A DNA stretch of 64,000 bases from Candidatus Bathyarchaeota archaeon (lineage in GTDB: Archaea > Thermoproteota > Bathyarchaeia > Bathyarchaeales > Bathycorpusculaceae). Numbering within the stretch: position 1 is the stretch's first letter; every line of letters begins with the position of its first letter. The notes beneath the pieces were generated by a model. It did not search any database and had not been told where the DNA came from. It saw nothing but the letters and a program-made list of their open reading frames with translations. Below, piece by piece: positions 6,293-30,707 of the stretch. The stretch lies in the NCBI GenBank assembly GCA_963702095.1, contig OY969706.1, positions 640,001-704,000 on the forward strand, in the 5' to 3' direction. The position numbers were made by a program, and so were the translations under genes.

Positions 6293-7147
6293 ATGGAACA
6301 ACTCGCAATATGTACAGAAGCCGAAGAGCCAAGCACCTCCCTGCTTAGCTACACCAAAGCTCAAGCGCAAAAAAAGAGTTGCGCCAGCATGCTAGAGGAG
6401 CATCCACGCCTCGACGTTGGACGCTTCAAATTCAGCAAGCTCAAATTGGTAGTAACATCCCCCAGCAACGTCGGCAACAACTATTGCGACCCCAAAAACA
6501 CCAAACCAAAGGTGACATCAGCAAAAGAAAGCATCGCACAAATCCGCTCCGCCGCCAAAAACGACCCCCGCCTCCGCGTAATCGAAGTTTCTGGTTCAGG
6601 CGACGCATTAACAAGCAACGTAACCTTCGAAATCCTCCGCATGGTCCGCAAAGAATTTCCCTATTTCACCACCTGCGTAGTCACCAACGGGTTGTTGCTG
6701 CCCAGAAAACTTGCTCTCCTACAAGACTTAGGCATCCACGCCATAAAAGTGACAGTGAACGCCGTTGACTCCTACGTTGGCCAGCAGATTTACAGTTACA
6801 TCCGCTTAAACGGCAAAACCCTGCGTGGCAGAGAAGCCTTTGAAGTGTTAAGCATAAACCAGCTTGAAGGCTTACGCAATGCCGCCGACGCCGGTTTGAT
6901 GGTGGAAGTTGACGCTGCCTACATTCCAGGCGTGAACTCGGAGCATCTGGTTGAAGTGGCAAGAATCGTGCGGAGCCTAGGCGCATATGTGATGGATATT
7001 ATGCCTCTTGACCAGTCGGTGGGATTTGCTGGTTTGGATGCGCCCTATTTGGAGGAGATGGTGAAGATTCGCCGTGACTGCGAGGATGTGGTCGCTTCCG
7101 AGGTGCTTCTGCATTCTTGGCCTGATGCATCATGCTATATCGCCTAA
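6293..7147 (+). CDS. NifB-like radical-SAM-fold protein with degenerate Fe-S motif
   Basis: NifB-like segments: EEHP, GSGDAL, CVVTNGLLLP, VTVNAVD...QIYSYI, NQLEGL, IPGVNSEH, IMPL. The CxxxCxxC position reads SNVGNNYC. Confidence 0.7.
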   Translation: MEQLAICTEAEEPSTSLLSYTKAQAQKKSCASMLEEHPRLDVGRFKFSKLKLVVTSPSNVGNNYCDPKNTKPKVTSAKESIAQIRSAAKNDPRLRVIEVSGSGDALTSNVTFEILRMVRKEFPYFTTCVVTNGLLLPRKLALLQDLGIHAIKVTVNAVDSYVGQQIYSYIRLNGKTLRGREAFEVLSINQLEGLRNAADAGLMVEVDAAYIPGVNSEHLVEVARIVRSLGAYVMDIMPLDQSVGFAGLDAPYLEEMVKIRRDCEDVVASEVLLHSWPDASCYIA

Positions 7148-8806: not shown

Positions 8807-9286
8807 GTGACAGAAATGCGGGATAAACGCTTTGTCGCCGAACACAGAGGCGGACCCCTAACAAAAACCCAGCATCGGCAACTAATGCAGTGGGCAATCC
8901 AATGCGCCAAGCATGTACGCCCACTTTTTGGGGAAAAAGTTGACCCACGCCTGGAAAACGCGCTGAAGGTAGCCGCGGCTTGGGAACACGAGGAAGCTTC
9001 GGTTGGCGATGCAAGAAACGCCGCTATTGCCGCACATGCTGTCGGGCGTGAATCATCCAATCCAGCGTCGGTAGCGGTTGCCCGTGCCGTGGGGCATGCT
9101 GTTGCAGTCGCTCACATGGCTGACCACTCGCTTGGAGCGGCACTGTATGCACTGAAAGCTGTGAAGGCTGCGGGTGGTTCGGTTGAGGCGGAGCAAAATT
9201 GGCAGCTTGAGCATTTGCCGGTTGATGTAAGGTACCTTGTTTTGTCAGCTCTGGAAGCGCCGAAGTTCAAGAAATTCAAAATCTAA
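8807..9286 (+). CDS. Putative immunity-like (Imm5-like) helical protein
   Basis: HRQLMQWAIQCAKHV, D.R...AL..A.AW and ARAVGHAVAVAHMADH pattern. Confidence 0.6.
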   Translation: MTEMRDKRFVAEHRGGPLTKTQHRQLMQWAIQCAKHVRPLFGEKVDPRLENALKVAAAWEHEEASVGDARNAAIAAHAVGRESSNPASVAVARAVGHAVAVAHMADHSLGAALYALKAVKAAGGSVEAEQNWQLEHLPVDVRYLVLSALEAPKFKKFKI

Positions 9287-9630: not shown

Positions 9631-9674
9631 TGCTGTGGGGCGGGATTTGAACCTGCAAACCCCTGCGGGAAAGG
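9631..9674 (-). repeat. Degenerate copy of the tRNA-Leu 3' half (relic att site)
   Basis: TGCTGTGGGGCGGGATTTGAACCTGCAAACCCCTGCGGGAAAGG matches 24603-24645 at 38 of 44 positions. Confidence 0.85.
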
Positions 9675-10229: not shown

Positions 10230-10247
10230 TGGTGCTACGGGCAGGAT
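10230..10247. repeat. att direct repeat, left boundary of the integrated element
   Basis: TGGTGCTACGGGCAGGAT is identical to 24600-24617 (the last 18 nt of tRNA-Leu including CCA). Confidence 0.92.
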
Positions 10248-13344: not shown

Positions 13345-14700
13345 TCAGCGTTTACGCCGCTTTCCTAAAATTATGCCTGTCAATACAAAAAGTAGTGCTA
13401 TGATGATCGTGGTGATGACAACAAAGCTGTCAATATGAAAGTTATCGGTAGCAGTCTTTGGATCTGTAGATCCTAAATTTATTGCATAAATGTTAATCTT
13501 GCTAATTAGCGGATAATGGTCAATGTTGTTTTCATTTATAGTGTAAGATGCGCTGCCTATTCCAGAGGTACTTGCTACTTGCGATTGTGGAGTGTAATCG
13601 CTCCAATAGTTACCAAAATAGCCATTATCCCAAGAAACAACATTGGTGCCGTTCCCAATTACTTGACCGTTGTAACTCTGGTTAACCATAAGCAGCAAAT
13701 TTGGGGGATATGCACTCTCTACAACTGCGTTTGCTGTATTATTGATTAAATTGTTATTGAATACACTATTTCCATTTCCGACCTCAGGCGCAAAGGGCCA
13801 TAGAAGGAAATTGCTTACTTTTACTCCAACACCATTATCCGTAATATTATTAGAGTATACATTGGAATCTCGGCAAAAATCGTTAAAGTTAATACCAAAA
13901 TCTCTATTTTTCTGGATTCGGTTTTCGAAAATCTTGAGATCACTAGCATTCGGTCCAATTAGTAGGCCGCCAAACTCACCTGCGTTTGTGCTAAATCCAT
14001 TGTTTGAAATCATATTCGCCTGAAGAATAATATCGTGGCAGCTTGAAAATTGAACACCAATATCACAATCTGTAATGGTATTACCTATAATTGAAGTATC
14101 AGACGAGCTAACAATTATTCCAAAAGAAGCTTGTCTAATCAAGTTACGTGCAATCGTATTGTTTGTTCCTTCATTAGTAGAAATGCCGGCTGACTTATTG
14201 GCTATAATAATATTATCCGTTATTTCTACTCCTGATGGGTTTACACCGTTATATTCACCATAATCCCAAAGCCCTATCTCCGTTCCAGCGTAACCCGTAA
14301 CTGTGAAGCCTGAGATAGTGACGTTATCGGAGACAACCCCAATTACCGCTTGGGCATCCCTGGCGTCTGCTCCGTGAATAATGGTGTTTTTGTTGTTTTC
14401 ACCGATCAGAGAGATAGGCTTGTTTATCAGAATAGCCACATCGCCTCCTGTTATGTAATCGACATTGTAAGTGCCAGAACGTACAAAGATCATATCGCAT
14501 GGTTTAGCGCTATCTATGGCGGATTGTATAGTTTTATACTGGTCAGGAACAATTAAAGCCCCGTCCGAAGGGCTGAACTCTCCATCTTCAGGGTTTGCAA
14601 AACATAATTTAACCTGTAAAAACAAAGATGACCCCAACAGACCAATAACGGTTAATATTAGAATATATTTACGCTTGTTCAGGTTGCGCTCACTTGTCAT
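13345..14700 (-). CDS. Cell-surface right-handed beta-helix (NosD/pectin-lyase-like) protein
   Basis: N-terminal signal peptide, VPDQYKTIQSAID..GTY, repeated I.GN.I..N units, GNYWSDY...D.YPL, and a C-terminal TM helix followed by KRRKR. Confidence 0.85.
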   Translation of the reverse strand: MTSERNLNKRKYILILTVIGLLGSSLFLQVKLCFANPEDGEFSPSDGALIVPDQYKTIQSAIDSAKPCDMIFVRSGTYNVDYITGGDVAILINKPISLIGENNKNTIIHGADARDAQAVIGVVSDNVTISGFTVTGYAGTEIGLWDYGEYNGVNPSGVEITDNIIIANKSAGISTNEGTNNTIARNLIRQASFGIIVSSSDTSIIGNTITDCDIGVQFSSCHDIILQANMISNNGFSTNAGEFGGLLIGPNASDLKIFENRIQKNRDFGINFNDFCRDSNVYSNNITDNGVGVKVSNFLLWPFAPEVGNGNSVFNNNLINNTANAVVESAYPPNLLLMVNQSYNGQVIGNGTNVVSWDNGYFGNYWSDYTPQSQVASTSGIGSASYTINENNIDHYPLISKINIYAINLGSTDPKTATDNFHIDSFVVITTIIIALLFVLTGIILGKRRKR

Positions 14701-14867: not shown

Positions 14868-14960
14868 ATGAAGAAATTCAATAATTTGAAAGAAACAAAT
14901 AGGCTCCAGCGAAGTTTAGACTTTAGACTTGGGGAGGACGTAACTTATGTGTCCATATGA
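14868..14960 (+). CDS. Possible 30-aa upstream peptide overlapping the start of the Cys-rich protein
   Basis: AAGGTG, then ATG at 14868; MKKFNNLKETNRLQRSLDFRLGEDVTYVSI*. Confidence 0.3.
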   Translation: MKKFNNLKETNRLQRSLDFRLGEDVTYVSI

Positions 14961-16509
14961 TCATGCTGATACTTCTACGCATATCGATCAAATTCCGAAT
15001 TATCCTCCAGCAAAAACTTGGGACACAAACTTCCAATGCGATCCTCACAACACTGATGCCCAATCTATGGGGAATGTTGGAGTAACTTATTGGCGAAACC
15101 CACAATCCCTAGGACATGGAGTTAACATTACTGTACCGAAAGGAACAGGTGGAAATCCTGGTAGTTGCACAATAAGCTTTACTTGCACACAACCAAGAGG
15201 ATACTCGAATAAAGACGCCTGCCTGCTGTATTATGCTCCCATCGCAATCTCACCCGGCGACACCAACGATATTCGACTTAGCTTTCAATTAAACCTAGGA
15301 GTACAAAAAGATCTATGCTATATCAATGGGGCTGTTGGTCAAGGGGCGCAGCAATGCTATGACCTTGTCAATAACAATTATGACTATAATGATACAGGAC
15401 TAAACTGCATCGTCATTTACAACTATAGCCAACAGTGTGATGTTAGACTCATAGACTTTCAAGTTGTTAGAACTTATACAATGCAGAGACTTGCAGATAA
15501 CCCATGCTCAGAAGTTCCTCAGACGCCCGCTACCGGAACTCTAGATCAGTACCGTATTGATTATCCCTGCAACATAAATCAATGTGGAGGAAGAAGCTAT
15601 ACATTCCATTTCGATGGTTACCATGAAGGCGAATACTTAGCAAGCGGAAATTACTTTGAATGGTCATTCAACTGGGCTAAAGATTGGACCACACCACTTG
15701 GCGATGATCACAACTATATTGCTAAAGAAATATGCATGTTTAACTTCAATCAAATTAAAGCTACCAATGGCTCTACGGATGTTCACTTAAGGGCGTACCT
15801 TAATGGCGTCTCGGTCGGTGACTATTATATAAGCAAGCAGTATAACAACTGTTCATTCCCGAGCATTGATTTAGCAGATTTTGACGCCTATAATGACACT
15901 GGTTCAAACACTGTCAGACTCACAAACTTAGGCGACCGCCAAATTCAGATGTGCGACGGAGCTGGCATAAATATCTATCGAATCTATAGGACTGAGTGCA
16001 TTTCAATGCATTTGATTTCTCCAACAGCAGGTATGGGCGGTTCAATAGTTGCAACGCCTCAAAACATTTACAGGCAATATATCCCAGTGGCTTCAGGCGA
16101 TAATCAACAATTCCAGATAACAGCGAACTCAAACTATTTGATTTCAGATGTTGTGATTAATAGTAGTCAGCATTTAGGGGCTCAAAGCAGCCCTTACACG
16201 TACACATTCAACAACGTCACTGGAGACGGTTCAATTTCGGCAGAATTCGCTGCAAATCAGCCAACCCATAACTTAACTATCAATGCATTCCTTGACCCAA
16301 TATCAGATTACGTCAATGTAGGTGTCAGCGTTAACGGCCAGTATGTAGGAACAACTCCTGTAACAGTTTCAGTGCCCGAAGGGACTTCAACAGTTTACGT
16401 AGACTTCAACTATGGTTACTGGTGTTTCATACTCTTCAACAACAGCTATGCAATGGGTGATCCTATACCTGTCTACTCAGACGTAACATTAACAGCCCGA
16501 TACGCATAA
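14947..16509 (+). CDS. Cys/Tyr/Asn-rich beta-domain protein: two internal repeats, an InlB-B-repeat-like domain and a PEGA-like domain; no signal peptide
   Basis: Repeats YINGAVG...YNDTGLN...VVRTY and YLNGVSVG...YNDTGSN...IYRIY; TAGMGGSI...FQITANSNYLISDVVIN...YTYTFNNVT; VNGQYVGTTPVTVSVPEG. Confidence 0.75.
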   Translation: MCPYDHADTSTHIDQIPNYPPAKTWDTNFQCDPHNTDAQSMGNVGVTYWRNPQSLGHGVNITVPKGTGGNPGSCTISFTCTQPRGYSNKDACLLYYAPIAISPGDTNDIRLSFQLNLGVQKDLCYINGAVGQGAQQCYDLVNNNYDYNDTGLNCIVIYNYSQQCDVRLIDFQVVRTYTMQRLADNPCSEVPQTPATGTLDQYRIDYPCNINQCGGRSYTFHFDGYHEGEYLASGNYFEWSFNWAKDWTTPLGDDHNYIAKEICMFNFNQIKATNGSTDVHLRAYLNGVSVGDYYISKQYNNCSFPSIDLADFDAYNDTGSNTVRLTNLGDRQIQMCDGAGINIYRIYRTECISMHLISPTAGMGGSIVATPQNIYRQYIPVASGDNQQFQITANSNYLISDVVINSSQHLGAQSSPYTYTFNNVTGDGSISAEFAANQPTHNLTINAFLDPISDYVNVGVSVNGQYVGTTPVTVSVPEGTSTVYVDFNYGYWCFILFNNSYAMGDPIPVYSDVTLTARYA

Positions 16510-16520
16510 TCAACAAAAAG

Positions 16521-16709
16521 GTGAATAATATGTCTGAAATAAGCGAATTAACACAGAAGTTGCAGCCAGCACAACAAATCAAAACAAAGTTAATCGTCAA
16601 CGAAATGATAGTTCAAGTGGATTCCGTCGTAAAAAAACTGATCTCGCAGAATGCGGCCCTAAGAAAGGAAAACGCTGATCTAAAGGCTCAACAAGCAACA
16701 ACGATATAA
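16521..16709 (+). CDS. Small coiled-coil protein
   Basis: KLISQNAALRKENADLKAQQ heptads; 11 nt after the previous stop. Confidence 0.65.
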   Translation: MNNMSEISELTQKLQPAQQIKTKLIVNEMIVQVDSVVKKLISQNAALRKENADLKAQQATTI

Positions 16710-16857
16710 ACGAAAAAACCTCTTTCTTTCCCTATTTTTTTACTTATATTAAATCAAACATTTACTCCAAATAGCAAATAGTGTTTCGGAAACCTATCGT
16801 TTGGCTTAATGCCCCAAACAAGCGTCTTTAGAACATGGAGGAATAAAAATAACTACA

Positions 16858-18090
16858 TTGATTCTACCAAGTATCGCGTGCAACCTAAGATGTAGCTATT
16901 GTTTCGGTCATAATCATTATTGGAACACCGCACAAAAATATGATCTTCAATCCATCTTAGATTCCATGGAACAGCTAAAACAACAATCAAGTGATGAAAC
17001 TTTTTCATTGCATGGCGGTGAATGCACTTTGGTACCTCGAGAAGACTTTGAAGTTTTACTTAGGAAAATGGTTGATCTTCAGGGATATTCCTCTTTGCAA
17101 ACGAATTGTTATCAGTTGGATGAGGACTTAATTAGGATGTTTATAAAGTACCGCACTTCAGTGGGTATAAGCATCGATGGAAATGGACCTTTAAATTCAT
17201 TGAGAGGCTTCCCTCGAAATCGAAAAGTAAACAGAAATTACACTAATCAAGTGATTAATAACATAAGCAGGCTTCGTCAGGCAGGCATATCAGTAGGTAT
17301 ACTTACAATATTGAGTAAAGTCAATGCTGGTTCTAATTGCAAACTCATGGCGCTTCTTCGTTTTATTCTTATGTTGAGAAACCACGGCGTCAAAGATGGC
17401 CGGCTAAATTTTATGTGGAGCAACCTGCCCGACGTAAGAAAGATTGAATTAACACCCGAAGAGGCGTCACAAGCTTGGATATACCTTTACCAACATATGA
17501 AAGAATACGATGATCTTCACTGGCAACCTTTCAGAGAGTTTAGCGACAGCTTGCTTGGATTTGGGAATTCAAGTTGTTCCTATGGACAATGTGACTATTT
17601 TTGCACTCAAACCAAACTTATCTTGCCTGATGGTATAGTCGCTAACTGTGATCGAACGCACCAAGAGGACTCTTTCTATACAAGGGCACAACTGTCCTAT
17701 GAAAGATATGACATTCTAAAACAGACCGACTGTTACCATTGCAGATTTTGGGATGTTTGCTATGGAGGATGCCCTGCTGAAGGAGCAGAAGGGGATTGGC
17801 GGAATAAAACAAGATGGTGTAAGCCCATTTATGATTTATACTTACAAATTGAAAATCAACTGAAAAGCACTTTTCCCAATGTTAAACTCATGTCTCATTA
17901 TGCTGGTTCAGAAGATTATTTCCACACCTTCAGCCAAGGGATAAAAAACGATCCTTTTAGGTGTATGTCATGGAAAACCGCTAAAAACCCGTCTTCTTGG
18001 AAGGCGGTTCAGTTATATGACCAACAAGAAAGACAAAACCAAACAAGTATAGTCCCTTTACCAAGCGATCATAATAAAATAACCAATTAA
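16858..18090 (+). CDS. Radical SAM/SPASM-domain enzyme (anSME/peptide-maturase type)
   Basis: CNLRCSYC, HGGE, QTN and SIDG motifs; SPASM CYHCRFWDVCYGGCP...WC plus CSYGQCDYFC. Confidence 0.92.
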   Translation: MILPSIACNLRCSYCFGHNHYWNTAQKYDLQSILDSMEQLKQQSSDETFSLHGGECTLVPREDFEVLLRKMVDLQGYSSLQTNCYQLDEDLIRMFIKYRTSVGISIDGNGPLNSLRGFPRNRKVNRNYTNQVINNISRLRQAGISVGILTILSKVNAGSNCKLMALLRFILMLRNHGVKDGRLNFMWSNLPDVRKIELTPEEASQAWIYLYQHMKEYDDLHWQPFREFSDSLLGFGNSSCSYGQCDYFCTQTKLILPDGIVANCDRTHQEDSFYTRAQLSYERYDILKQTDCYHCRFWDVCYGGCPAEGAEGDWRNKTRWCKPIYDLYLQIENQLKSTFPNVKLMSHYAGSEDYFHTFSQGIKNDPFRCMSWKTAKNPSSWKAVQLYDQQERQNQTSIVPLPSDHNKITN

Positions 18091-18103
18091 AAGAGGAATC
18101 AAT

Positions 18104-18904
18104 GTGAAAGAAATCAACCCCTTCATAAAAATTTCTTGGAGCTCAGAGGAAACTAGAAGAAAATGGGCTTCGTATTTGCCTTCTATTGCTAAAATAACCG
18201 CTAATTCAGAATACGCGCTGGTGAAAAAGGGAATAAGAGCCGCTAACATATTTTGTATGCATCCACAAAGTTTTGACAGAGAAATCGAAAAGATAACAAT
18301 GGATGGCCTTGTCTTTCTGCCCATGCTTAGAAGTAAGTCATACGTAGGATTCAGTCATAAGCACAATCCTGTTAAGGCGATAGATTCCAACGCTCTAATA
18401 TACGGTGTCATTGCAAGAAAGCTTGAAACAGCACAAAATTTCGTAAATCTTTCAAATGAAAATAACCATATAGCAATTGGTCAACTGCTAGGTTATCCTA
18501 ATTGCTGCTCAGAAGCCTTTCAGCAATACTGGGGAAATAGAGAAATATTCGACCCATGCTACGAAATAGCTCAATGCACTCCTGGCGCTATTACTAGCGG
18601 CACATGTGTGCACGTGGGTGTCAATCCGTTAATTAATCCGCTTTTAAGGTATTTTGGAATTAAGGTTATTCCATTCTTTCCATGCAGCTATGAATGCCCT
18701 CAGGCTGTAAAGATCGCTGAAGTTTGGTTTAATGAGCTGAAATCCCTTGATGTCGAAATTGCCAGTGTAATAAAAAAATTCATGGAACAATCGATGACTT
18801 GGAGTCTGAACAAAGGGATTATTTTCGTAAAAAATCCTATTTTCAGAGGTGTGGTAAATGGTTATGAGTGTAAAATTAAAAAGGAAATCTTTGCAAACTG
18901 TTAG
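18104..18904 (+). CDS. DUF483-like Cys-motif protein
   Basis: IGQLLGYPNCCSEAF and FFPCSYECPQA motifs; 13 nt after the radical SAM stop. Confidence 0.7.
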   Translation: MKEINPFIKISWSSEETRRKWASYLPSIAKITANSEYALVKKGIRAANIFCMHPQSFDREIEKITMDGLVFLPMLRSKSYVGFSHKHNPVKAIDSNALIYGVIARKLETAQNFVNLSNENNHIAIGQLLGYPNCCSEAFQQYWGNREIFDPCYEIAQCTPGAITSGTCVHVGVNPLINPLLRYFGIKVIPFFPCSYECPQAVKIAEVWFNELKSLDVEIASVIKKFMEQSMTWSLNKGIIFVKNPIFRGVVNGYECKIKKEIFANC

Positions 18905-19598: not shown

Positions 19599-19970
19599 AT
19601 GTTTACGGTTAATAACGGTACTCGGCTTCTAGTTTTCAGTGGACGAGAAGCCCGTTTAAACCGTGCTATTTTTCAGATAATGCGAAAGAAAGACTACTCT
19701 TGCTATGACATTTACAAAGAACTTCGCCACTTGAAAGAGTTTAGGCATGTGGATTATCGTACAGTTACAAGACGTATACAGGCGTTATTGAGGGAGAAAT
19801 GGATTGACGAGAGAGGAAGTAAACTAACTCAGCCAGGCTGGGATTCGATTATATATGGTTTAACGGTCAGAGCTGAGGCGGCTTTAGCTTTAGACAAAAT
19901 AAATTTAGATAGCTTCCTTGAAACAGTGTCTGACGATCAAATTCAAAGACTCATTGATTCTTTAAGATAA
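19599..19970 (+). CDS. wHTH protein, paralog of 21931-22323
   Basis: LVFSGREARLNRAIF...YDIYKELR...RRIQAL...W...YGLTVRAEAAL. Confidence 0.75.
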   Translation: MFTVNNGTRLLVFSGREARLNRAIFQIMRKKDYSCYDIYKELRHLKEFRHVDYRTVTRRIQALLREKWIDERGSKLTQPGWDSIIYGLTVRAEAALALDKINLDSFLETVSDDQIQRLIDSLR

Positions 19971-20560: not shown

Positions 20561-21478
20561 ATGTCTCAGGATGGCTCTGGCTGTAAGGATTGTAAGCATG
20601 TTCGGGAGCACGTATCTTCGGTTCTTCCCTTCAAAGTCCTTGAAGCAGTAGCAGAGAAGCCCTTACGAATCGGCGGAGTTGCATTGGCCGCTGGAATGTC
20701 TAGGAACTTTAACGTTTATACGCCTGAAGAACTCCGAGCTTTTGCTGACAAGTTGGTTGATGCCCCTGTCTATATTGAGCATGTGGCTGTTGATTCGGCT
20801 GTTGGAAAAGTAACCAAGTGCAACTACGATGCCGCTGCTCGATGTCTAAATTATGAGGCTGAGATTTATGACGCTGCCACCGCTGATAAAATTAGAAATG
20901 GACTCGTTCAGCACGTTAGTGTCGGCGCTGACTACAACACGCTTGACGTAGTGGACGCCAAAGTTCCGCACGGCCTATTCAATCCCGAGTTATCGCTTGT
21001 TGCCGTTCCAGGTGTGCCTGAAACTAACGTTCAGGTACTAGAGCATCTTGCAACGGGTAAGAATCCTGTACAATTGGCAGAGAAAGACTTGAATTTAATC
21101 GCTGAAAAGGTCGCTGCAAAAGTAAACGGACAGAACACGGAAACAATCGAGAACCTCAAATTACAGATTTCAGAAGCTAACACAAAGTTATCTGACACAG
21201 AGAGCAAATGCAAGACCGCTGAGAATACCTGCGATGAGGCAAAAAACCAGCTGTCTACTGCTAACAAAACCATCGAGGAACTGCGAAAGAAGTTGCCCGG
21301 TGGAGGATTGCTAAAAAAGCCGTCAATTATGATTCCTCTCTCTGAGCATATTGCTTGCCTTGAGCGTTTGTTGCCTTCTCAAATGGTGCAACGTTCAAGC
21401 TTGGGCATGCAACGTATCTGTCAATCTATCCGCTCAGAAGTTTTTAAGGCAAAAGAACGCTTGGGGCGTGGACCTTAG
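20561..21478 (+). CDS. Viral prohead protease/scaffold-like protein
   Basis: IGGVAL..GMSRN..VYT.EEL, VYIEH, HVSVG and ELSLVAVPG protease-like motifs, followed by a long coiled coil. Confidence 0.7.
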   Translation: MSQDGSGCKDCKHVREHVSSVLPFKVLEAVAEKPLRIGGVALAAGMSRNFNVYTPEELRAFADKLVDAPVYIEHVAVDSAVGKVTKCNYDAAARCLNYEAEIYDAATADKIRNGLVQHVSVGADYNTLDVVDAKVPHGLFNPELSLVAVPGVPETNVQVLEHLATGKNPVQLAEKDLNLIAEKVAAKVNGQNTETIENLKLQISEANTKLSDTESKCKTAENTCDEAKNQLSTANKTIEELRKKLPGGGLLKKPSIMIPLSEHIACLERLLPSQMVQRSSLGMQRICQSIRSEVFKAKERLGRGP

Positions 21479-21555: not shown

Positions 21556-21786
21556 ATGGCTGATAAAACAGGTAAGCCTTGGATGGCTGCTGGCGAAACT
21601 GACGATCCAAATGCAGTCATTGAAAGTTATGCGGCCAATGGCGCAGTTATAAAGGGGTCACCTGTCGAATTAACAAATGATGGCAAAGTGACGGCTACTC
21701 CTACCACTTGGTATGGCTTTGGCATTGCTGTTAAAGCCGCTGCGGATGGCGAGCAGGTTCTATCAAACATTCTAGAACCAATTTAA
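21556..21786 (+). pseudogene. Truncated capsid cement/head-decoration-like protein
   Basis: YAANGAVIKGSPVEL..DGKV...GFGIAVKAAADGEQV, then an abrupt end. No major capsid gene follows. Confidence 0.55.
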
Positions 21787-21930: not shown

Positions 21931-22323
21931 GTGACTCGGAAGAGATGCAAGGGCACAGAACTGAAAGTGTTTAGCGGCAGAGAGGCTGCCCTAAACTTTG
22001 TCATCTTTCTGGTTCTCTACCCAGAGGGCAAACTTTTGGCAAGTTATGACGTATTCAGAGAGGTTAGAGCCGTCAAAGGCTTCAGACGCAAAGGAAGACA
22101 AAACATTGACCGGCGACTGAAGGCTCTTTTCAAGCAGCACTGGCTAGAATTAGAAGGCACAAGGACTATACGTGCACATTTTTCCGTTACACCCCTCTAC
22201 AAGTTGAGCCTAAGAGGCAGGGCAGCCTTAGAGCTAAGTAAAAAAGACCTCAACGTTTTTCTTCAAATAGCGCCCGAAGACCAACTCCAAAAGCTAATAG
22301 ATGCACTAAAGATGTATCCGTAA
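21931..22323 (+). CDS. wHTH protein, paralog of 19599-19970
   Basis: LKVFSGREAALNFVIF...YDVFREVR...RRLKAL...W...YKLSLRGRAAL. Confidence 0.75.
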   Translation: MTRKRCKGTELKVFSGREAALNFVIFLVLYPEGKLLASYDVFREVRAVKGFRRKGRQNIDRRLKALFKQHWLELEGTRTIRAHFSVTPLYKLSLRGRAALELSKKDLNVFLQIAPEDQLQKLIDALKMYP

Positions 22324-22701: not shown

Positions 22702-23172
22702 ATGGCTGAACTTACATCAAACGTGACACAACCCCCAGGCAGCATTGGAGGCACAAACTGTAAGTCATCCCTGAAAGGGGATGCAGGCACCAGCTCCCCA
22801 AACCCATCTCAGCAACTGATTTTTGTCCGCTACCTAGACCATGTCCTCTACAACCGCAATTATGCTGTTTTGATGAAACCGCAGACAAGAGAAGCCGTCG
22901 GCTGGCTAGTCTACGATTGCGAGTTGTACCTCGTTTTATCTTGGGATAGAGACGCTGAGCCGCCTACGCTTCATGGCGGCGACCCTAAAGCTTCTGGTTT
23001 GGTGCTTCTGAAAAGCGATATTTTGGACTTGCAACTGTTTACGGTGGGTTTGCAGTCTCTACCAGAAAATTATGAATTGAATTTAAAAAGCAAACAAGCC
23101 ATACAAGAGGTTGAGTATGCGTTCCGACCATCGGAGCGAAAAACTCTAAGAGAAGGAGTCAAGAAAAAATGA
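22702..23172 (+). CDS. Hypothetical protein coupled to the integrase
   Basis: GGGAGGG upstream; VRYLDH...REAVGWLV motif; ATGA overlap with the integrase start. Confidence 0.65.
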   Translation: MAELTSNVTQPPGSIGGTNCKSSLKGDAGTSSPNPSQQLIFVRYLDHVLYNRNYAVLMKPQTREAVGWLVYDCELYLVLSWDRDAEPPTLHGGDPKASGLVLLKSDILDLQLFTVGLQSLPENYELNLKSKQAIQEVEYAFRPSERKTLREGVKKK

Positions 23173-24686
23173 GCAACATCAGACTAGCACCGCCTATCAT
23201 CCGCAAACAGCAACTAACCATCGAAGACATAAAAGACCTCAAGCTGCCAATCGAAATCTTAAGCGACAAAATCATCATCACACGCAGCCTAAGAAACTGG
23301 AAACTCCAACAACCAATCACACTGGAACTAAGCAAAGTCTTAGACGCCAAAGAAAAAGGACTCGTAAACTACATCATAACCAGCTTCATCAGCGACCGAC
23401 CCGCCCTTCTACCATTCGTTTTCGACAATCAAAGCCTAATCAAACTCGCCAGACACCTACTGCGTCACTACAGTGGAAGCTACAAAAGCTGCCTCGTCTA
23501 CACAGTCAACTTCTATAGATACTCCACATGGCTCGGCTACTCCCCTGACCTAATCATAGCAGACCTAAAACCAGTAGGAAACATTCCTGACCCCCAACGC
23601 GTACAAAACCACACCGGATACCTCAACGACTACTTAGCACAGCTGCAAGACGACGGACTTAAACCCGGAGGCGTAGAGAACCGCATCAAAGCCGTAAAAA
23701 CCTTCTACCGCGTCAACGGCGTAAAAATTGAGCTCACCGAACCCCTAAGCCGACGAGTCGTCTACAAAGACCGAGCACCAAAACCTGAAGAACTCGCAAC
23801 CATGCTGGACTTAACCGATCTACGCGGCAAAGTCATCGTTTCATGCCTCGCACTAGGCGGTTTCCGAGAAGAAACCTTTTCCAAACTGCTCTACCGACAT
23901 GTCAAAGACGACTTAGAAGCAGGGACCATACCCATCCACGTACACGTCGAAATCGAAATAACCAAAGGCAAATACCACGACTACGACACGTTCCTAGGCG
24001 CCGAAGCCGCATACTACCTAAAACTCTACCTCGACCAACGCAGAAAAGGCACAAAAAAAGTCCCACCCGAAAACATAACCTACGACTCACCTTTAATCCG
24101 CGATGAAACCCGCCGAACCCCAAAAAGCATAAGCACCAAACAACTCCGAAAAATCGTACACGAACTCTACTTCAAAGCAGGCTTTATCAAACCCAACAAA
24201 ACAGGCGCAATGTACGACCTCCGCGTTCATAGCATACGCAAATACTTCAAAACCCAACTAATCGCACTTGGCGTTCAAGAAGACTACGCTGATTACTTTA
24301 TGGGCCACACAGTAGACACCTACCACGACATTCAAAGCCTCGGCATCGACAAACTACGCACCATCTACGCCGCAGCAGGCTTAGCCATACGCAAAAAAAC
24401 AGCAATCAGCAAAATCGACACCATAAAAGAAATGATACGGGCATTAGGCGAAAACCCAGAGCAGCTACTGACACGAGAAGCGCTGTCCAGAGGCAACCAC
24501 ACAGAGCTAAACATCGAAGATCATCAGGTTGGCGTGCTTACTGAGGAGTTAGTGAAGTTGATCCGCCAAACAGCGGACAGTACAAATGCTCATCGGGAAT
24601 GGTGCTACGGGCAGGATTCGAACCTGCGAACCCCTGCGGGAAAGGATATCCCATCCGTGGGGCCAGACCTGCCGGCCAAACGTTGA
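23169..24686 (+). CDS. Tyrosine recombinase/integrase
   Basis: Catalytic residues in GGFREET (R), TKGK (K), VHSIRK (HxxR) and FMGH...TY; adjacent to att and tRNA. Confidence 0.93.
   Translation: MSNIRLAPPIIRKQQLTIEDIKDLKLPIEILSDKIIITRSLRNWKLQQPITLELSKVLDAKEKGLVNYIITSFISDRPALLPFVFDNQSLIKLARHLLRHYSGSYKSCLVYTVNFYRYSTWLGYSPDLIIADLKPVGNIPDPQRVQNHTGYLNDYLAQLQDDGLKPGGVENRIKAVKTFYRVNGVKIELTEPLSRRVVYKDRAPKPEELATMLDLTDLRGKVIVSCLALGGFREETFSKLLYRHVKDDLEAGTIPIHVHVEIEITKGKYHDYDTFLGAEAAYYLKLYLDQRRKGTKKVPPENITYDSPLIRDETRRTPKSISTKQLRKIVHELYFKAGFIKPNKTGAMYDLRVHSIRKYFKTQLIALGVQEDYADYFMGHTVDTYHDIQSLGIDKLRTIYAAAGLAIRKKTAISKIDTIKEMIRALGENPEQLLTREALSRGNHTELNIEDHQVGVLTEELVKLIRQTADSTNAHREWCYGQDSNLRTPAGKDIPSVGPDLPAKR
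24600..24617. repeat. att direct repeat, right boundary (tRNA 3' end)
   Basis: Identical to 10230-10247. Confidence 0.92.
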
Positions 24687-24727
24687 TCTTGAGTCCTTCA
24701 CCTTTGACCTGGCTTGGTTACCGTAGC
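24600..24727 (-). tRNA. tRNA-Leu(CAA) with a 40-nt intron (24648-24687) at position 37/38; CCA encoded
   Basis: GCTACGG/CCGTAGC acceptor stem, AAGGA-CT-CAA-G^A-TCCTT anticodon arm, long variable arm, GGTTCGAATCC T-loop, ACCA end. Confidence 0.95.
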
Positions 24728-27331: not shown

Positions 27332-30300
27332 TTGACAACTATACAAAAAGTCCAAAAAGAAGACATTCACTATCTCCTCAAAACATTCTTCAACGATAAA
27401 GGCCTAGTCCGCCAGCACCTCGACAGCTACAACGAATTCATCGACCATGGACTCCAAGAAGTCGTGGACGAAGTCGCCGAAATCCCCATCGAAGTGCCAG
27501 AGAGCCCATACAAAGTTAAGCTAGGCCAAATCTGGGTCATAGACCCGCAGAGCCGCATCACCGGTCCCTACGCAACCGAAGTAGACGGCACCAAACATGA
27601 AATTTACCCCATGGAAGCAAGACTTAGAAACTTGGCGTATTCCGCGCCTATAGCGTTGGAAATGACTCCGGTCATCGACGGCAGAGAACAAGACACGGAG
27701 TTAGTCTACATCGGCAACATCCCCGTCATGTTAAAAAGCAAACTTTGCTTCCTAAGCCAGCTGAGCCGCGAAGAACTTATCGCAGCAGGCGAAGACCCAG
27801 ACGATCCTGGAGGATACTTTGTCGTTAACGGTTCTGAGCGCGTCATCGTCGCCATGGAGGACTTGGCGCCCAACCGCGTCATAGTTGACATCGACGAAAA
27901 AGGAACCAGTCCCATTTTCCAAGCAAAAATCTTCTCAACCACTGTAGGCTTCCGCGCACGCATAGAGCTCAAGCTCAAAAGCGACGACGCAATCTACGTC
28001 ACCATGCCCGGTGTCCCCACAGAAATCCCCTTCGTCGTCATCATGCGCGCCCTAACACTCGAAAAAGACAAAGACATCGCCGAAGCAGTCAGCCTAGACC
28101 CCGACACCCAAACCCAACTGGGCGCTTCATTCGAAAAAGCCATCGGCGTAGACACACCCCAAGACGCCATCCTCTTCATCGGCAACCGCGTCGCCCATGG
28201 ACAAGTCGAAGAATACAGGCTTCAGAAAGCCGAAACCGCCCTCGACAAAAACTTCCTGCCGCACTTGGGCAGAAGCGATAAAAACCGCCGCGATAAAGCC
28301 ATATTTTTAGGCGAAATGGCATACCGCGTTATCCAACTCAAGACGGGCAGGCGCCAACCAGACGACAAAGACCACTTCAAAAACAAACGTCTACGACTCG
28401 GCGGTCCACTCTTAGCAGACCTCTTCCGAGTCTCCTTCCGCAATCTTACACGTGACATCAAGTATCAGCTTGAACGCATAGGCGTTAAGGGCCCAATAAT
28501 CACTGTCTCAGCCGCAGTCCGCCCCGGCATCATCACCGAACGGTTCCAGCATGCATTGGCAACTGGCAACTGGGGCAGAGGCAGAGTCGGCATCACCCAA
28601 CTACTCGACCGAACAAACTACATCTCAACCCTTAGCCACCTACGAAGGCTCCAGTCGCCATTGAGCAGAAGCCAACCTAACTTCGAAGCCAGAGACTTAC
28701 ACCCCACCCACTGGGGCAGACTCTGTCCAAACGAGACGCCTGAAGGCTCAAACTGCGGTCTCGTAAAAAACCTCGCGTTATCCGCTTCCATCGCCGTCGG
28801 CGTAAACCCCGACCGCATCCGCCAACTACTCTTCGAAATGGGCACGGTCCCAGCATACGAAGCCACCAACGAACTGCGCATAAACGGCGCCAAAGTCTTC
28901 GTTGACGGAAACATAATCGGCTACTGCAACAACCCCCAAGATATGGTGCAGAATTTCCGCCAAAGACGACGTGCAGGCGAAATCTCCACAGAAGTCAACG
29001 TAACCTACTTCTCCAAGCAGCAAACCGAAACCGAAGAACTCCACGCTAACTGCGACGAAGGCAGAGTCCGCCGCCCACTCATCATTGTGGAAAACGGCAT
29101 TGCGAAATTGCAGGGTAAGCACTTCGAGAAAATCGGGTTAGGCGAATGGACTTGGGAAGACCTTGTCAAAAACGGCTTAGTCGAATACCTTGACGCTGAG
29201 GAAGAGGAAAACGCTTACATCGCTCTTAGCTACGAAACCATAGCGCCCGATTCAACTCATGTTGAAATCGCCACCTACACCATACTTGGTATCTGCGCAT
29301 CCACTATCCCCTATCCAGAGCACAACCAGTCACCACGCAACTCCTACCAAGCAGCCATGGCAAAACAAGCTTTAGGCGTCTACGGCACAAACTTCCATCA
29401 CCGCGTCGACAGTCGCAGCCACATTCTCCACTACCCTCAGGTGCCACTGGTCCAAACCGAAAACATGGAAGTCATGGGCTACAAGCAACGTCCCACAGGG
29501 CAAAACTGCGTTGTCGCCGTGTTATCGTTTGAAGGATACAACATGGAAGACGCCATCATATTCAATAAAGCCTCAATAGAAAGGGGCTTAGCACGCAGCA
29601 CCTTCTACCGCATCTACGAAGCTGAGTGCCGCCAGTACCTCGGTGGACTCAAAGACCAATTCAGAATACCCGAGGCAGGCACACGTGGTTACAGAGGCGA
29701 ACAATACTACCGCTTACTAGAACCCGACGGAATCATTGGTCTCGAATCAACGGTTGTCGGCGGAGACGTGCTTATCGGCAGAATCAGCCCCCCAAGATTC
29801 CTCGAAGAATACAAGGAATTCGAAGTCAAGGGACCCAGCATGCGTGACACCTCTGTTGACATGCGCCCGTCTGAAACAGGCATCGTGGATGGCATATTCA
29901 TCACTGAAAGCGGCGAAGGCAGCCAACTCGTCAAAGTCCGCGTCAGAGACCAACGTGTCCCTGAACTCGGAGACAAATTCGCCAGCCGCCATGGACAGAA
30001 AGGAGTCATCGGCTTAATCGTGCCCCAAGAAGACTTACCCTTCACAGACGACGGCATCGTCCCCGACTTAATCATCAACCCGCACGCTATCCCCAGCCGT
30101 ATGACCATCGGACAATTCATCGAGTCACTCTCAGGCAAAGTCGCAGCGGCAAGTGGCAAACCAGGCGACGGCACGCCCTTCACCAATGAAGGACCCGACG
30201 AAGTACGCAAAAACCTCACAAAACACGGATTCAGCCACACAGGCAGCGAAGTCTTCTATAACGGCAAATCAGGAGAAAAATTCGTCGCCGATGTTTTCGT

Positions 30301-30706
30301 AGGCTTAGTTTACTACCAGAAACTCCACCACATGGTCGCTGACAAAATCCACGCTCGCGCTCGTGGCCAAGTGCAGATGCTCACTCGCCAGCCAACTGAA
30401 GGCCGTGCGAGGGGTGGTGGTCTGCGTTTCGGAGAAATGGAGCGGGACTGCCTAATCGGACACGGCGCCGCTATGCTACTGCGTGACAGATTGCTGGAGG
30501 AGTCAGACAAGTACACGCTCTACATCTGCGAGAACTGTGGGCAAATCGCTTACTTCGATATGAAACAGAGGCGTTATGTCTGCAAAATCTGTGACGAAAA
30601 AGCCAAGATCGCCCCAGTAATCGTATCATACGCTTTCAAGCTTCTCTTACAGGAGCTGCAGAGCCTATGCATCACACCCAAACTCAAACTTAAGGAGAAG
30701 GCATAA
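27332..30706 (+). CDS. rpoB: DNA-directed RNA polymerase subunit B (Rpo2, unsplit)
   Basis: GDKFASRHGQKG, KLHHMVADK and GGLRFGEMERD motifs. Confidence 0.98.
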   Translation: MTTIQKVQKEDIHYLLKTFFNDKGLVRQHLDSYNEFIDHGLQEVVDEVAEIPIEVPESPYKVKLGQIWVIDPQSRITGPYATEVDGTKHEIYPMEARLRNLAYSAPIALEMTPVIDGREQDTELVYIGNIPVMLKSKLCFLSQLSREELIAAGEDPDDPGGYFVVNGSERVIVAMEDLAPNRVIVDIDEKGTSPIFQAKIFSTTVGFRARIELKLKSDDAIYVTMPGVPTEIPFVVIMRALTLEKDKDIAEAVSLDPDTQTQLGASFEKAIGVDTPQDAILFIGNRVAHGQVEEYRLQKAETALDKNFLPHLGRSDKNRRDKAIFLGEMAYRVIQLKTGRRQPDDKDHFKNKRLRLGGPLLADLFRVSFRNLTRDIKYQLERIGVKGPIITVSAAVRPGIITERFQHALATGNWGRGRVGITQLLDRTNYISTLSHLRRLQSPLSRSQPNFEARDLHPTHWGRLCPNETPEGSNCGLVKNLALSASIAVGVNPDRIRQLLFEMGTVPAYEATNELRINGAKVFVDGNIIGYCNNPQDMVQNFRQRRRAGEISTEVNVTYFSKQQTETEELHANCDEGRVRRPLIIVENGIAKLQGKHFEKIGLGEWTWEDLVKNGLVEYLDAEEEENAYIALSYETIAPDSTHVEIATYTILGICASTIPYPEHNQSPRNSYQAAMAKQALGVYGTNFHHRVDSRSHILHYPQVPLVQTENMEVMGYKQRPTGQNCVVAVLSFEGYNMEDAIIFNKASIERGLARSTFYRIYEAECRQYLGGLKDQFRIPEAGTRGYRGEQYYRLLEPDGIIGLESTVVGGDVLIGRISPPRFLEEYKEFEVKGPSMRDTSVDMRPSETGIVDGIFITESGEGSQLVKVRVRDQRVPELGDKFASRHGQKGVIGLIVPQEDLPFTDDGIVPDLIINPHAIPSRMTIGQFIESLSGKVAAASGKPGDGTPFTNEGPDEVRKNLTKHGFSHTGSEVFYNGKSGEKFVADVFVGLVYYQKLHHMVADKIHARARGQVQMLTRQPTEGRARGGGLRFGEMERDCLIGHGAAMLLRDRLLEESDKYTLYICENCGQIAYFDMKQRRYVCKICDEKAKIAPVIVSYAFKLLLQELQSLCITPKLKLKEKA

Positions 30707-30707
30707 G

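Follow-up and report, generated by a model that had tools for sequence, protein, structure and literature searches.

We examined a 64,000-nucleotide stretch (hereafter the window) of the genome of a Candidatus Bathyarchaeota archaeon of the Bathycorpusculaceae (assembly GCA_963702095.1, contig OY969706.1, positions 640,001 to 704,000), in which an integrated mobile element of ~15 kb carries a cassette that pairs a radical S-adenosylmethionine (rSAM)/SPASM enzyme with a DUF483-like protein. As the first-pass annotation of this DNA had described, four open reading frames (ORFs) lie co-oriented on the + strand within the AT-rich part of the element (GC content of 0.37-0.42 at 12-20 kb of the window, as against 0.45-0.47 on both flanks): a 520-aa protein with 17 cysteines (14947..16509, +), regarded here as a candidate target of the cassette, a 62-aa ORF (16521..16709, +), the rSAM/SPASM enzyme (16858..18090, +; 410 aa counted from a TTG codon) and its DUF483-like partner (18104..18904, +; 266 aa, with a GTG start). 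The module formed by the last two genes was already noted in 2024, with no function given; what is new here is its near-constant adjacency to genes encoding arrays of aromatic(His)-x-Asp/Asn motifs. The 62-aa ORF, which had been described as a coiled-coil peptide, does have a coiled-coil-like composition, but it gave only sub-threshold Pfam coiled-coil matches and no BLAST match in 10 related loci, and it is not a conserved part of the cassette.

The rSAM/SPASM enzyme and its DUF483-like partner

The 410-aa protein matches the Pfam Radical_SAM model (PF04055) with 61.4 bits (cut-off 29.5), and its CxxxCxxC motif (C8/C12/C15) is invariant in an alignment of 30 homologues. Equally invariant is a second set of residues (C240, C245, G259, C264, C292, C295, C301, C305 and C321), laid out as C245-x13-G259-x4-C264, C292-x2-C295-x5-C301-x3-C305 and C321, plus C240; the SPASM consensus comprises seven cysteines in the order Cx9-15Gx4C, gap, Cx2Cx5Cx3C, gap, C. 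The Pfam SPASM model gave no match to the protein at E<=0.1, and TIGR04085 reached 22.8-24.2 bits on fused relatives (cut-off 27). On sequence grounds (the invariant cysteine motif and full-length alignment to the models of DynA and of the anaerobic sulfatase-maturating enzyme, anSME), the enzyme belongs to the SPASM subgroup.

Its best NCBIfam matches are DynA (82 bits, cut-off 450) and anSME (TIGR03942, 73.5 bits, cut-off 349.45), both aligned end to end. Among the cyclophane and triceptide models, AmcB scored 63.8 bits (cut-off 425), YhhB 60.9 (445), GrrM 34.4 (310), FxsB 32.8 (370) and XyeB 31.9 (450), while the other sulfatase-maturase models gave 45.8 (PRK13758, cut-off 441) and 33.4 bits (PRK13745, cut-off 484) and HxsB 28.5 bits (cut-off 370). 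Every curated rSAM subfamily cut-off, that of anSME included, is missed by a wide margin. Among solved structures, those nearest in sequence are anSME 4k36, at 43.3 bits for residues 5-115, and ChlB, a triceptide synthase, at 25.1 bits.

The first-pass annotation had called this enzyme intact, which agrees with its Radical_SAM match and its invariant SPASM cysteines but passes over its start. Where the aligned start codon is ATG in four related archaeal-type loci (L002, L003, L005 and L016) and GTG in a fifth (L015), the window has ATA at 16849. Within this start region (16837..16860, +) a GGAGG lies 7 nt upstream of the ATA, and the first usable start is the TTG at 16858, three codons further downstream. 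The TTG-started product retains the whole CxxxCxxC, whereas starts beyond it would lose the motif, as does the public gene call (P0178, 374 aa), which begins downstream of it. In L004 and L005, both on contigs of Bathyarchaeota metagenome-assembled genomes (MAGs), the rSAM gene is broken into two ORFs, and the nucleotidyltransferase gene of L004 is split as well; these splits may be frameshifts or long-read assembly errors.

For the 266-aa protein, the DUF483 model PF04467 scored 24.5 bits (cut-off 25) over profile positions 35-101 of 122, and a six-frame search gave 22.7 bits, or 26.3 when neighbours in frame were included. The label DUF483-like, proposed earlier for a protein with GYPxCC and PCSxxC motifs, is borne out by these motifs and by the annotation of PF04467 on 19 of 20 non-self homologues, though the protein's own score falls just short. 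In the homologue alignment C134, C194 and C198 are invariant, and C135, C152, H85 and a GFSH loop nearly so. Inteins with LAGLIDADG homing-endonuclease domains interrupt the family members P0056 and P0051, at the sites GYPK/CC and GGF/SHKH (the slash marking the insertion); intein insertion at conserved motifs is typical of active sites and catalytic motifs. The AlphaFold2 (AF2) model of the protein (predicted local distance difference test, pLDDT, 86.5) had no Foldseek match in the PDB at E<=0.001, and the leads returned by VIA-align (2guk, of unknown function, Z 5.8; NleE, Z 4.3) were too weak to use; weak matches of a predicted model do not make its fold new. A family profile search against a library clustered at 50% identity retrieved 2067 representative proteins at E<=0.001 (181 at E<=1e-30). 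The DUF483-like subunit could either present the substrate or carry out a second catalytic step.

The two genes travel together. In all of the 10 archaeal-type related loci (four from MAGs labelled Bathyarchaeota, six from metagenomes) the rSAM gene stands immediately upstream of the DUF483-like gene. A profile scan of IMG/VR with an alignment of close homologues found no relative, and with a broader alignment 128 contigs with a DUF483 relative, 80 of which were retrieved blind to their neighbours; an rSAM gene of the same family is present in 75 of these 80 viral loci (at 90% identity these dereplicate to 65 clusters, 60 of them with such a gene). The pair was also recovered, by tblastn against phage genomes, in three of three Thermus phages (Cumys, phiMa and phiLo), the proteins of the Cumys and phiMa module being 31% (rSAM, E 2.6e-54) and 28% (DUF483) identical to those of the window. 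Fused forms include rSAM-DUF483 (P0043, P0053), rSAM-DUF483-methyltransferase (P0163), DUF483-methyltransferase and glycosyltransferase-DUF483. In P0167, a protein lacking the rSAM domain, DUF483 is joined both to a PqqD domain of the type that recognizes peptides that are made on ribosomes and altered after translation (RiPPs; 38.9 bits, cut-off 23.4) and to an aKG-HExxH peptide beta-hydroxylase (56.9 bits, cut-off 40).

When modelled as a complex, the two proteins of the window reached an interface score (ipSAE) of 0.80 (runs of 0.82, 0.80 and 0.77), the best of three controls scoring 0.00. A calibration that holds only roughly, since custom alignments were used, puts 58 of 80 solved complexes and 2 of 110 mismatched pairs at or above this mark. 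Between the runs at least 93% of contacts agree, partner pLDDT is at least 83, and the predicted interface joins residues 248-316 of the rSAM enzyme (the SPASM region) with residues 1-18 and 236-259 of the DUF483-like protein (first strand and last sheet). The model thereby supports binding of the two proteins without showing it.

A further enzyme often accompanies the pair. An RlaP-like (Pol-beta-type) nucleotidyltransferase lies beside it in six of the 10 archaeal-type loci, and in L016 a separate methyltransferase-like gene takes its place; the nucleotidyltransferase-like proteins of the related loci fall in no NCBIfam family. The cassette is accessory; none turned up in 10 genomes of the same genus or in 25 of the same family, and other genomes of the phylum gave only weak matches (7 of 400). 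Five genomes of the phylum (L021-L025) gave distant DUF483 matches, next to which BLAST detected no rSAM or array gene; these were treated as a different subfamily. On a cassette-bearing metagenome contig, a 780-aa protein with nucleotidyltransferase and ATP-dependent DNA ligase domains (L017:7432-9771, +) is encoded downstream of two genes for ConA-like lectin domains.

Aromatic-x-Asp/Asn arrays and the 520-aa protein

We counted as arrays those ORFs with at least eight aromatic-x-[DN] motifs in some 60-aa window. By this threshold 72 of the 80 viral loci contain an array ORF, which in 62 of the 80 lies no more than 300 nt from the cassette; after dereplication, 58 of the 65 clusters contain an array and 48 an adjacent one. 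As controls, 6 of 504 ORFs at distances above 3 kb from the cassette in these viral loci pass the same threshold, as do 3 of 11,497 frames (>=70 aa) of the genome from which the window derives. An earlier density-based count had missed 24 of the 80 loci, several of which hold proteins of 845-1421 aa with an array confined to the C-terminal part.

Array proteins are also encoded in five archaeal-type loci (L002, L003, L004, L015 and L018). In the last four, the gene just upstream of the rSAM gene is packed with H-S-D, H-T-D, H-T-N, F-S-D and Y-x-D motifs, at 7-10 H-x-[DN] per 100 aa (140 neighbouring ORFs: median 0, 95th percentile 1.4). All three Thermus phages have them as well. In Cumys the order of genes runs from baseplate genes through a tail-collar-fibre gene and a small gene to gp13, the rSAM gene and the DUF483 gene, gp13 holding 54 H-x-[DN] motifs in 343 aa; gp29 of phiMa has 53 motifs, and gp137 of phiLo, 3.3 kb from the cassette and on the other strand, has 75.

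In 82 non-identical arrays with 3576 motifs in all, the first position is His in 76%, Tyr in 12%, Phe in 9% and Trp in 4%, the second is variable (Ser 25%, Thr 20%, Gly 10%, Ala 7%, and others including Val), and the third is Asp in 74% and Asn in 26%. Successive motifs most commonly start five residues apart, with spacings of three and four also frequent, and H-x-D stays constant across arrays in which the spacers vary. Three of the 82 arrays are built mainly on Phe and three mainly on Tyr; near-pure Phe-x-Asn/Asp arrays (P-F-x-N-T type), as in L102:2908-3945 (+) and other viral loci, follow the same three-repeat N-terminal domain as gp13 of Cumys.

The array proteins range from 176 to 1421 aa with up to about 100 motifs, the array nearly always extending to the last residue. 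A conserved N-terminal domain of ~90 aa, made of three short repeats, precedes it in 34 of the 41 array proteins with a short N-terminal part (gp13 of Cumys among them), and the alternative is a long and unrelated N-terminal part of up to ~1150 aa. The array proteins match no Pfam or NCBIfam family, and the DUF483-like protein likewise has no NCBIfam match (at E<=0.1). Since tblastn of the non-repeat N-terminal parts of two large array proteins (L055 and L081) against 50,697 phage records found no match, a tail-fibre identity is not confirmed by homology.

The earlier proposal, that the enzyme pair acts on a neighbouring protein and not on a small-molecule precursor, gains support from this co-occurrence (72 of 80 viral loci, five archaeal-type loci and three of three Thermus phages), as does the hunch that H-x-D motifs matter. 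The search for a conserved neighbouring substrate that it called for turned up array genes recurring beside the pairs, and the comparison with sulfatase maturases was negative (TIGR03942, 73.5 vs 349 bits). Neither of the two sequence-based outcomes that might have told against the proposal was thus observed, because the array neighbour is conserved and the TIGR03942 score lies below the cut-off.

The gene preceding the cassette in the window encodes the 520-aa protein, which the first-pass annotation had described as Cys-rich and rich in beta structure and had named as the likely target. The description stands, with 17 cysteines and an all-beta AF2 model, albeit one with a mean pLDDT of 68.7, in which residues 1-42 are disordered and the rest forms beta-sandwich domains. 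Fold searches returned only generic multi-beta-sandwich proteins with TM-scores <=0.34. Homologues of the protein are encoded immediately before the cassette in L002 (36% identity) and L005 (26%), and it has few other relatives. Its C-terminus gives a weak PEGA match, and PEGA/B-repeat-like domains occupy the place where the L002 protein has its array.

As a target, the protein has in its favour a patch of two His-x-Asp motifs, the HAD-TST-HID unit (residues 6-14; 14962..14988, +), which is the proposed modification site and lies in a tail modelled at a pLDDT of about 30. The L002 orthologue reads H-S-D-T-S-T-H-I-D at the same N-terminal place, in addition to its C-terminal array; between the two proteins this unit is conserved and the next ~25 residues are not. 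The arrays of Cumys and phiMa contain H-A-D-T-S-T-H-G/N-D. When the 2.94-Mb genome is translated in six frames, the pattern H[ASTG]D[TS][ST][TS]H.[DN] appears a single time, at residues 6-14 of the 520-aa protein; in the 1,597 ORFs of related loci it is confined to five array-type proteins next to cassettes (L002, L004, L070, Cumys twice and phiMa twice). The looser H.D.{0,5}H.D occurs in 5 of 4173 ORFs. No hidden small precursor peptide was found in the six frames of the window. Compared with its relatives, the window holds a reduced archaeal cassette, with no array, no third enzyme and the ancestral ATG of its rSAM gene now ATA.

The integrated element and its surroundings

The element sits at a tRNA gene (24603..24727, -; Rfam RF00005, 43.3 bits, E 2.2e-6), its integration target, which was found by Rfam and missed by ARAGORN and which, being 125 nt long, probably has an intron. 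A partial copy of the tRNA 3'-end at 9638..9674, a 37-nt direct repeat 92% identical to 24609-24645, marks a left boundary resembling an attachment (att) site; a second copy of the 3'-end with its flank (10230..10247; 18 nt, 100% identical to 24600-24617) would be an alternative or older left boundary. At the right end lies a tyrosine-integrase-like gene (23169..24686, +; Phage_integrase E 4.7e-5, 23.7 bits, cut-off 27.1; PHROG integrase families), whose last ~84 nt overlap the tRNA gene on the opposite strand. With a tRNA target, a direct repeat of its 3'-end and an integrase at one end, this is an integrated mobile element.

The element encodes regulators, and Pfam and PHROG-type library scans, in which archaeal virus proteins are poorly covered, detected no capsid, portal or terminase in it. 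Two sub-threshold traces of a head module, Phage_cement_2 (E 0.003) at 21556-21786 and Phage_scaffold (E 0.03) at 20561-21478, were the only ones; we speak of an integrated mobile element rather than a provirus because hallmark matches are lacking and these two traces are faint. The earlier term virus-borne suits the cassette family, abundant as it is in viral contigs, better than it suits this element, which has no capsid or terminase match. That no sulfatase, transporter or protease lies nearby agrees with our scans, in which none of these families matched a scanned ORF of the element.

A right-handed beta-helix (NosD-like) protein of 451 aa (13345..14700, -; Pfam Beta_helix 80.4 bits, NosD 48.6 bits) shares the AT-rich cargo stretch with the cassette on the opposite strand, and no homologue of it adjoins the cassette in the 10 related loci. 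Two paralogous small proteins (19599-19970, +, and 21931-22323, +; 38% identical, E 6e-29), the first from the AT-rich cargo and the second from the GC-richer part near the integrase, suggest that the element arose as a composite of two related ones.

At 8807-9286 (+), immediately beyond the left att-like repeat, an Imm-5-like putative immunity protein (Pfam E 3e-40) is encoded. The genes beyond the element are ordinary archaeal ones (aldehyde:ferredoxin oxidoreductase, BacA, RNA polymerase subunits), and among them is a second, unrelated radical SAM gene (6293-7147, +; 284 aa, PF04055 38.7 bits). At 27332-34544 (+), RNA polymerase subunit B is a single ORF of 1124 aa and subunit A a single ORF of 1278 aa with Rpb1 domains 1-5; in many archaea these subunits are split (A'/A'', B'/B''). 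Near 44.5 kb the GC content drops sharply from ~0.47-0.55 (25-44 kb) to ~0.33-0.41 (45-64 kb), unrelated to the element.

Proposed function, rival explanations and known systems

We give slightly better than an even chance to the reading, drawn from sequence comparisons, that the rSAM/SPASM and DUF483-like proteins form a two-subunit maturase of the array proteins that would install triceptide-like cross-links, and of which the window would hold a reduced version. The two gene products would be the subunits, within a cassette family that is mostly carried by viruses, and the adjacent array protein would be the family's third conserved component and the substrate. The DUF483-like subunit would dock on the SPASM domain of the rSAM enzyme, which would abstract a hydrogen within each motif, most likely from the C-beta of Asp or Asn; this carbon would then be joined to the aromatic ring two residues upstream, as in triceptide cyclophane synthases, each motif losing 2 Da. 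In the window, the sole motif-bearing target would be the disordered HAD-TST-HID patch of the upstream 520-aa beta-sandwich protein.

Gene anatomy, motif conservation, the co-occurrence of cassette and array, the fusions, the predicted complex (as a prediction) and the RiPP-type domain links are directly established, and from them we infer that the arrays are the substrate and presume the local copy to be still active. Kinship points the same way, the best curated matches being maturases that form cyclophanes or other cross-links (DynA, AmcB, YhhB) and anSME. Triceptide enzymes, in the accessible parts of their description (PMC11499958), are rSAM/SPASM proteins that join an aromatic ring to the C-beta of residue 3, with HAA, HNR and HTK units known. 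The array motif fits this chemistry, since the aromatic-X-X unit matches and Asp and Asn share a C-beta. In the HXS antiphage system, again as far as the accessible text goes (PMC13128918), rSAM enzymes mature HxsA, a protein with His-x-Ser repeats, HxsC is bound to the small HxsD, and the reported mass change is +8 Da. As the triceptide match on one side is set against this +8 Da on the other, we regard cross-link chemistry, argued by analogy, as roughly evenly balanced.

A more specific version, which we hold tentatively and consider somewhat improbable as a whole, is that the pair installs dozens of intramolecular His(aromatic)-Asp/Asn cross-links, as a structural modification, on the C-terminal arrays of virion or element proteins, maybe tail-fibre-like ones, together with a swappable tailoring enzyme (methyltransferase, nucleotidyltransferase, glycosyltransferase or hydroxylase), the window being a minimal form with one tagged patch. 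The earlier suggestion of a virion fibre or adhesin finds only partial support, in the gene order of Cumys and in generic beta-sandwich fold matches.

Several observations weigh against the maturase proposal, or against its extension to the window. No array ORF was found in 8 of the 80 viral loci, and the window's genome (2.94 Mb) encodes no array protein, the best 60-aa window of the 520-aa protein having four motifs where the threshold is eight. In this genome (90% complete) the L002 protein as query recovered no RlaP-like nucleotidyltransferase. The uniqueness of HADTSTHID is suggestive and no test, as the pattern was defined after the data had been seen, and two relatives of the 520-aa protein (P0023 and P0024) are without the N-terminal unit. 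The ATA in place of the rSAM start implies that the local copy may be decaying. As to chemistry, the bond type is proposed by analogy only: all curated triceptide and cyclophane models are missed widely, so that sequence does not place the enzyme among them, and the +8 Da of HXS, instead of -2 Da, means that related systems may use other chemistry. Finally, a methyltransferase, nucleotidyltransferase or glycosyltransferase as partner would fit nucleic-acid chemistry too.

The same cassette and arrays might serve another chemistry, such as carbon insertion or dehydrogenation as in HxsA, epimerisation, beta-carbon methylation or hydroxylation, or a His N-C link, with DUF483 as a second catalytic enzyme. 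We consider this unlikely, though the likeliest of the alternatives. The maturase family of DynA makes more than one type of bond; the invariant Cys/His motifs of DUF483 and its two independent inteins, at GYPK/CC and GGF/SHKH, look active-site-like, and DUF483 also occurs without an rSAM domain, fused to a RiPP recognition element (RRE) and a hydroxylase (P0167). In HXS the rSAM-dependent change on an S-H-R-S-S motif is, in the accessible text, the +8 Da already mentioned (PMC13128918). On the other hand, what stays constant in the arrays is an aromatic residue and Asp/Asn at i and i+2 with a free second position, as a three-residue cyclophane needs, and Asp and Asn have only C-beta chemistry in common. 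A rather less probable alternative concerns the window alone, where the cassette would be a decaying passenger, its pair inactive or no longer acting on the 520-aa protein, and its adjacency to that gene inherited from an array-bearing, L002-like ancestor. The ancestral ATG turned ATA, the lack of an array in the genome and of a nucleotidyltransferase or methyltransferase partner, the failure to find the cassette in the 10 same-genus and 25 same-family genomes and the replacement of L002's C-terminal array by PEGA/B-repeat-like domains all fit decay. Yet both the rSAM and DUF483-like ORFs are full length, free of frameshifts and stops and in possession of every family-invariant residue, the TTG three codons on still covers the whole CxxxCxxC, and the N-terminal unit has been kept between the window and L002 where the next ~25 residues have not.

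We regard as improbable the suggestion that the module modifies DNA or another nucleic acid and that the arrays are its neighbours for some other reason. It was put forward in the preprint on Thermus phages, according to which homologues occur in cyanobacterial loci with deazapurine DNA-modification genes (bioRxiv 10.1101/2024.08.14.607894, searchable text); among the partner domains, methyltransferases and Pol-beta-type nucleotidyltransferases are common in nucleic-acid chemistry, and the cassette is phage-borne. It is disfavoured by the SPASM type of the enzyme and its kinship to peptide and protein maturases (the nearest curated models), by the fusion of DUF483 to PqqD/RRE and a peptide hydroxylase, and by the array gene lying within 300 nt in 62 of 80 loci, as against 6 of 504 distant ORFs. 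The word 'histidine' is absent from the searchable text of the preprint (bioRxiv 10.1101/2024.08.14.607894), so that the arrays were apparently not considered there. Very improbable, in our judgement, is an anSME-like oxidase that turns the Ser of H-S-D into formylglycine or a comparable carbonyl. In its favour, the anSME model ranks second among the matches (full-length, 73.5 bits), 4k36 is the closest solved structure by sequence (43.3 bits) and Ser is the commonest residue at position 2 (25%), but this position is not conserved, being Thr, Gly, Ala, Val or others in 75% of the motifs, which disfavours such an oxidation. The score also lies far under the cut-off of 349, the scanned ORFs of the element include no sulfatase, and the enzyme always comes paired with DUF483, as anSMEs do not.

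The DUF483-like family is large (2067 representatives and 128 IMG/VR contigs) and has neither an assigned function nor a solved fold match; with a recognisable substrate class beside the rSAM/DUF483 pair, an unexplained 'rSAM module' of phages becomes a directly testable hypothesis. Were the maturase proposal correct, DUF483 would gain a role, and the radical cross-linking of small RiPPs would extend to large viral proteins of bacterial and archaeal mobilomes. For the window alone, the outcome is a reduced and possibly decaying copy.

Among known systems, anSME (TIGR03942; 4k36) resembles the cassette's enzyme in having CxxxCxxC at the extreme N-terminus, no N-terminal RRE and two auxiliary clusters, and it acts on a folded or large protein, as we propose for the cassette. 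The differences are the score (73.5 vs 349 bits), the lack of a nearby sulfatase, the DUF483 partner and a conserved neighbour that is an array protein. The triceptide synthases (HaaB, YhhB, HtkB, OscB/GrrM, XyeB and ChlB; PMC11499958, as far as accessible) share with the cassette an rSAM/SPASM gene beside a substrate gene and aromatic-X-X motifs, often several per precursor, with interchangeable aromatics (here H, Y, F and W). An adjacent putative substrate of this type is present across the cassette family, in the window with only two motifs, HAD and HID. Unlike these synthases, the cassette's enzyme scores below all curated models, its DUF483 partner is obligate, its arrays are borne on proteins of 176-1421 aa, with Asp/Asn at position 3, instead of on short leader-core peptides, and its carriers are phages and archaeal elements; a shared chemistry is proposed by analogy.

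The 'rSAM module' of the Thermus phages Cumys and phiMa was described as three linked genes, with DUF483-methyltransferase and rSAM fusions noted, no function given and DNA modification suggested (bioRxiv 10.1101/2024.08.14.607894, searchable text). It is the same cassette, and its third gene, a His-x-Asp array, goes unmentioned in that text; the word undescribed in the first-pass annotation was therefore too strong. In the searchable literature, nothing was found that links the module to His-x-Asp arrays or to protein modification. The window's copy differs in being archaeal and without an array, and its subclade frequently carries a nucleotidyltransferase in place of a methyltransferase, although the three-enzyme archaeal-type cassette (rSAM, DUF483 and RlaP-like nucleotidyltransferase) is not what the window contains.

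The accessible account of HXS (PMC13128918) offers a further parallel, as there too a whole protein with His-x-small-residue repeats is matured, by an rSAM enzyme in complex with a non-rSAM partner (a predicted complex in our case), in a phage-host setting. The cassette falls outside HXS itself: it has one rSAM enzyme and not two (HxsB and HxsC), the HxsB model scored 28.5 vs 370 bits, and the DUF483-like and array proteins match no NCBIfam family, for which reason (at E<=0.1) the DUF483-like partner was not detected as HxsD. The five H-x-S repeats of HXS are basic, while the H-x-D/N arrays of the cassette are acidic and much longer. Lastly, HXS serves as a host defence, while it is the virus or element that encodes the cassette, so that, if the maturase proposal is true, the cassette would be a virus-side counterpart to a host system in which a His-x-Ser repeat protein is matured by rSAM enzymes.

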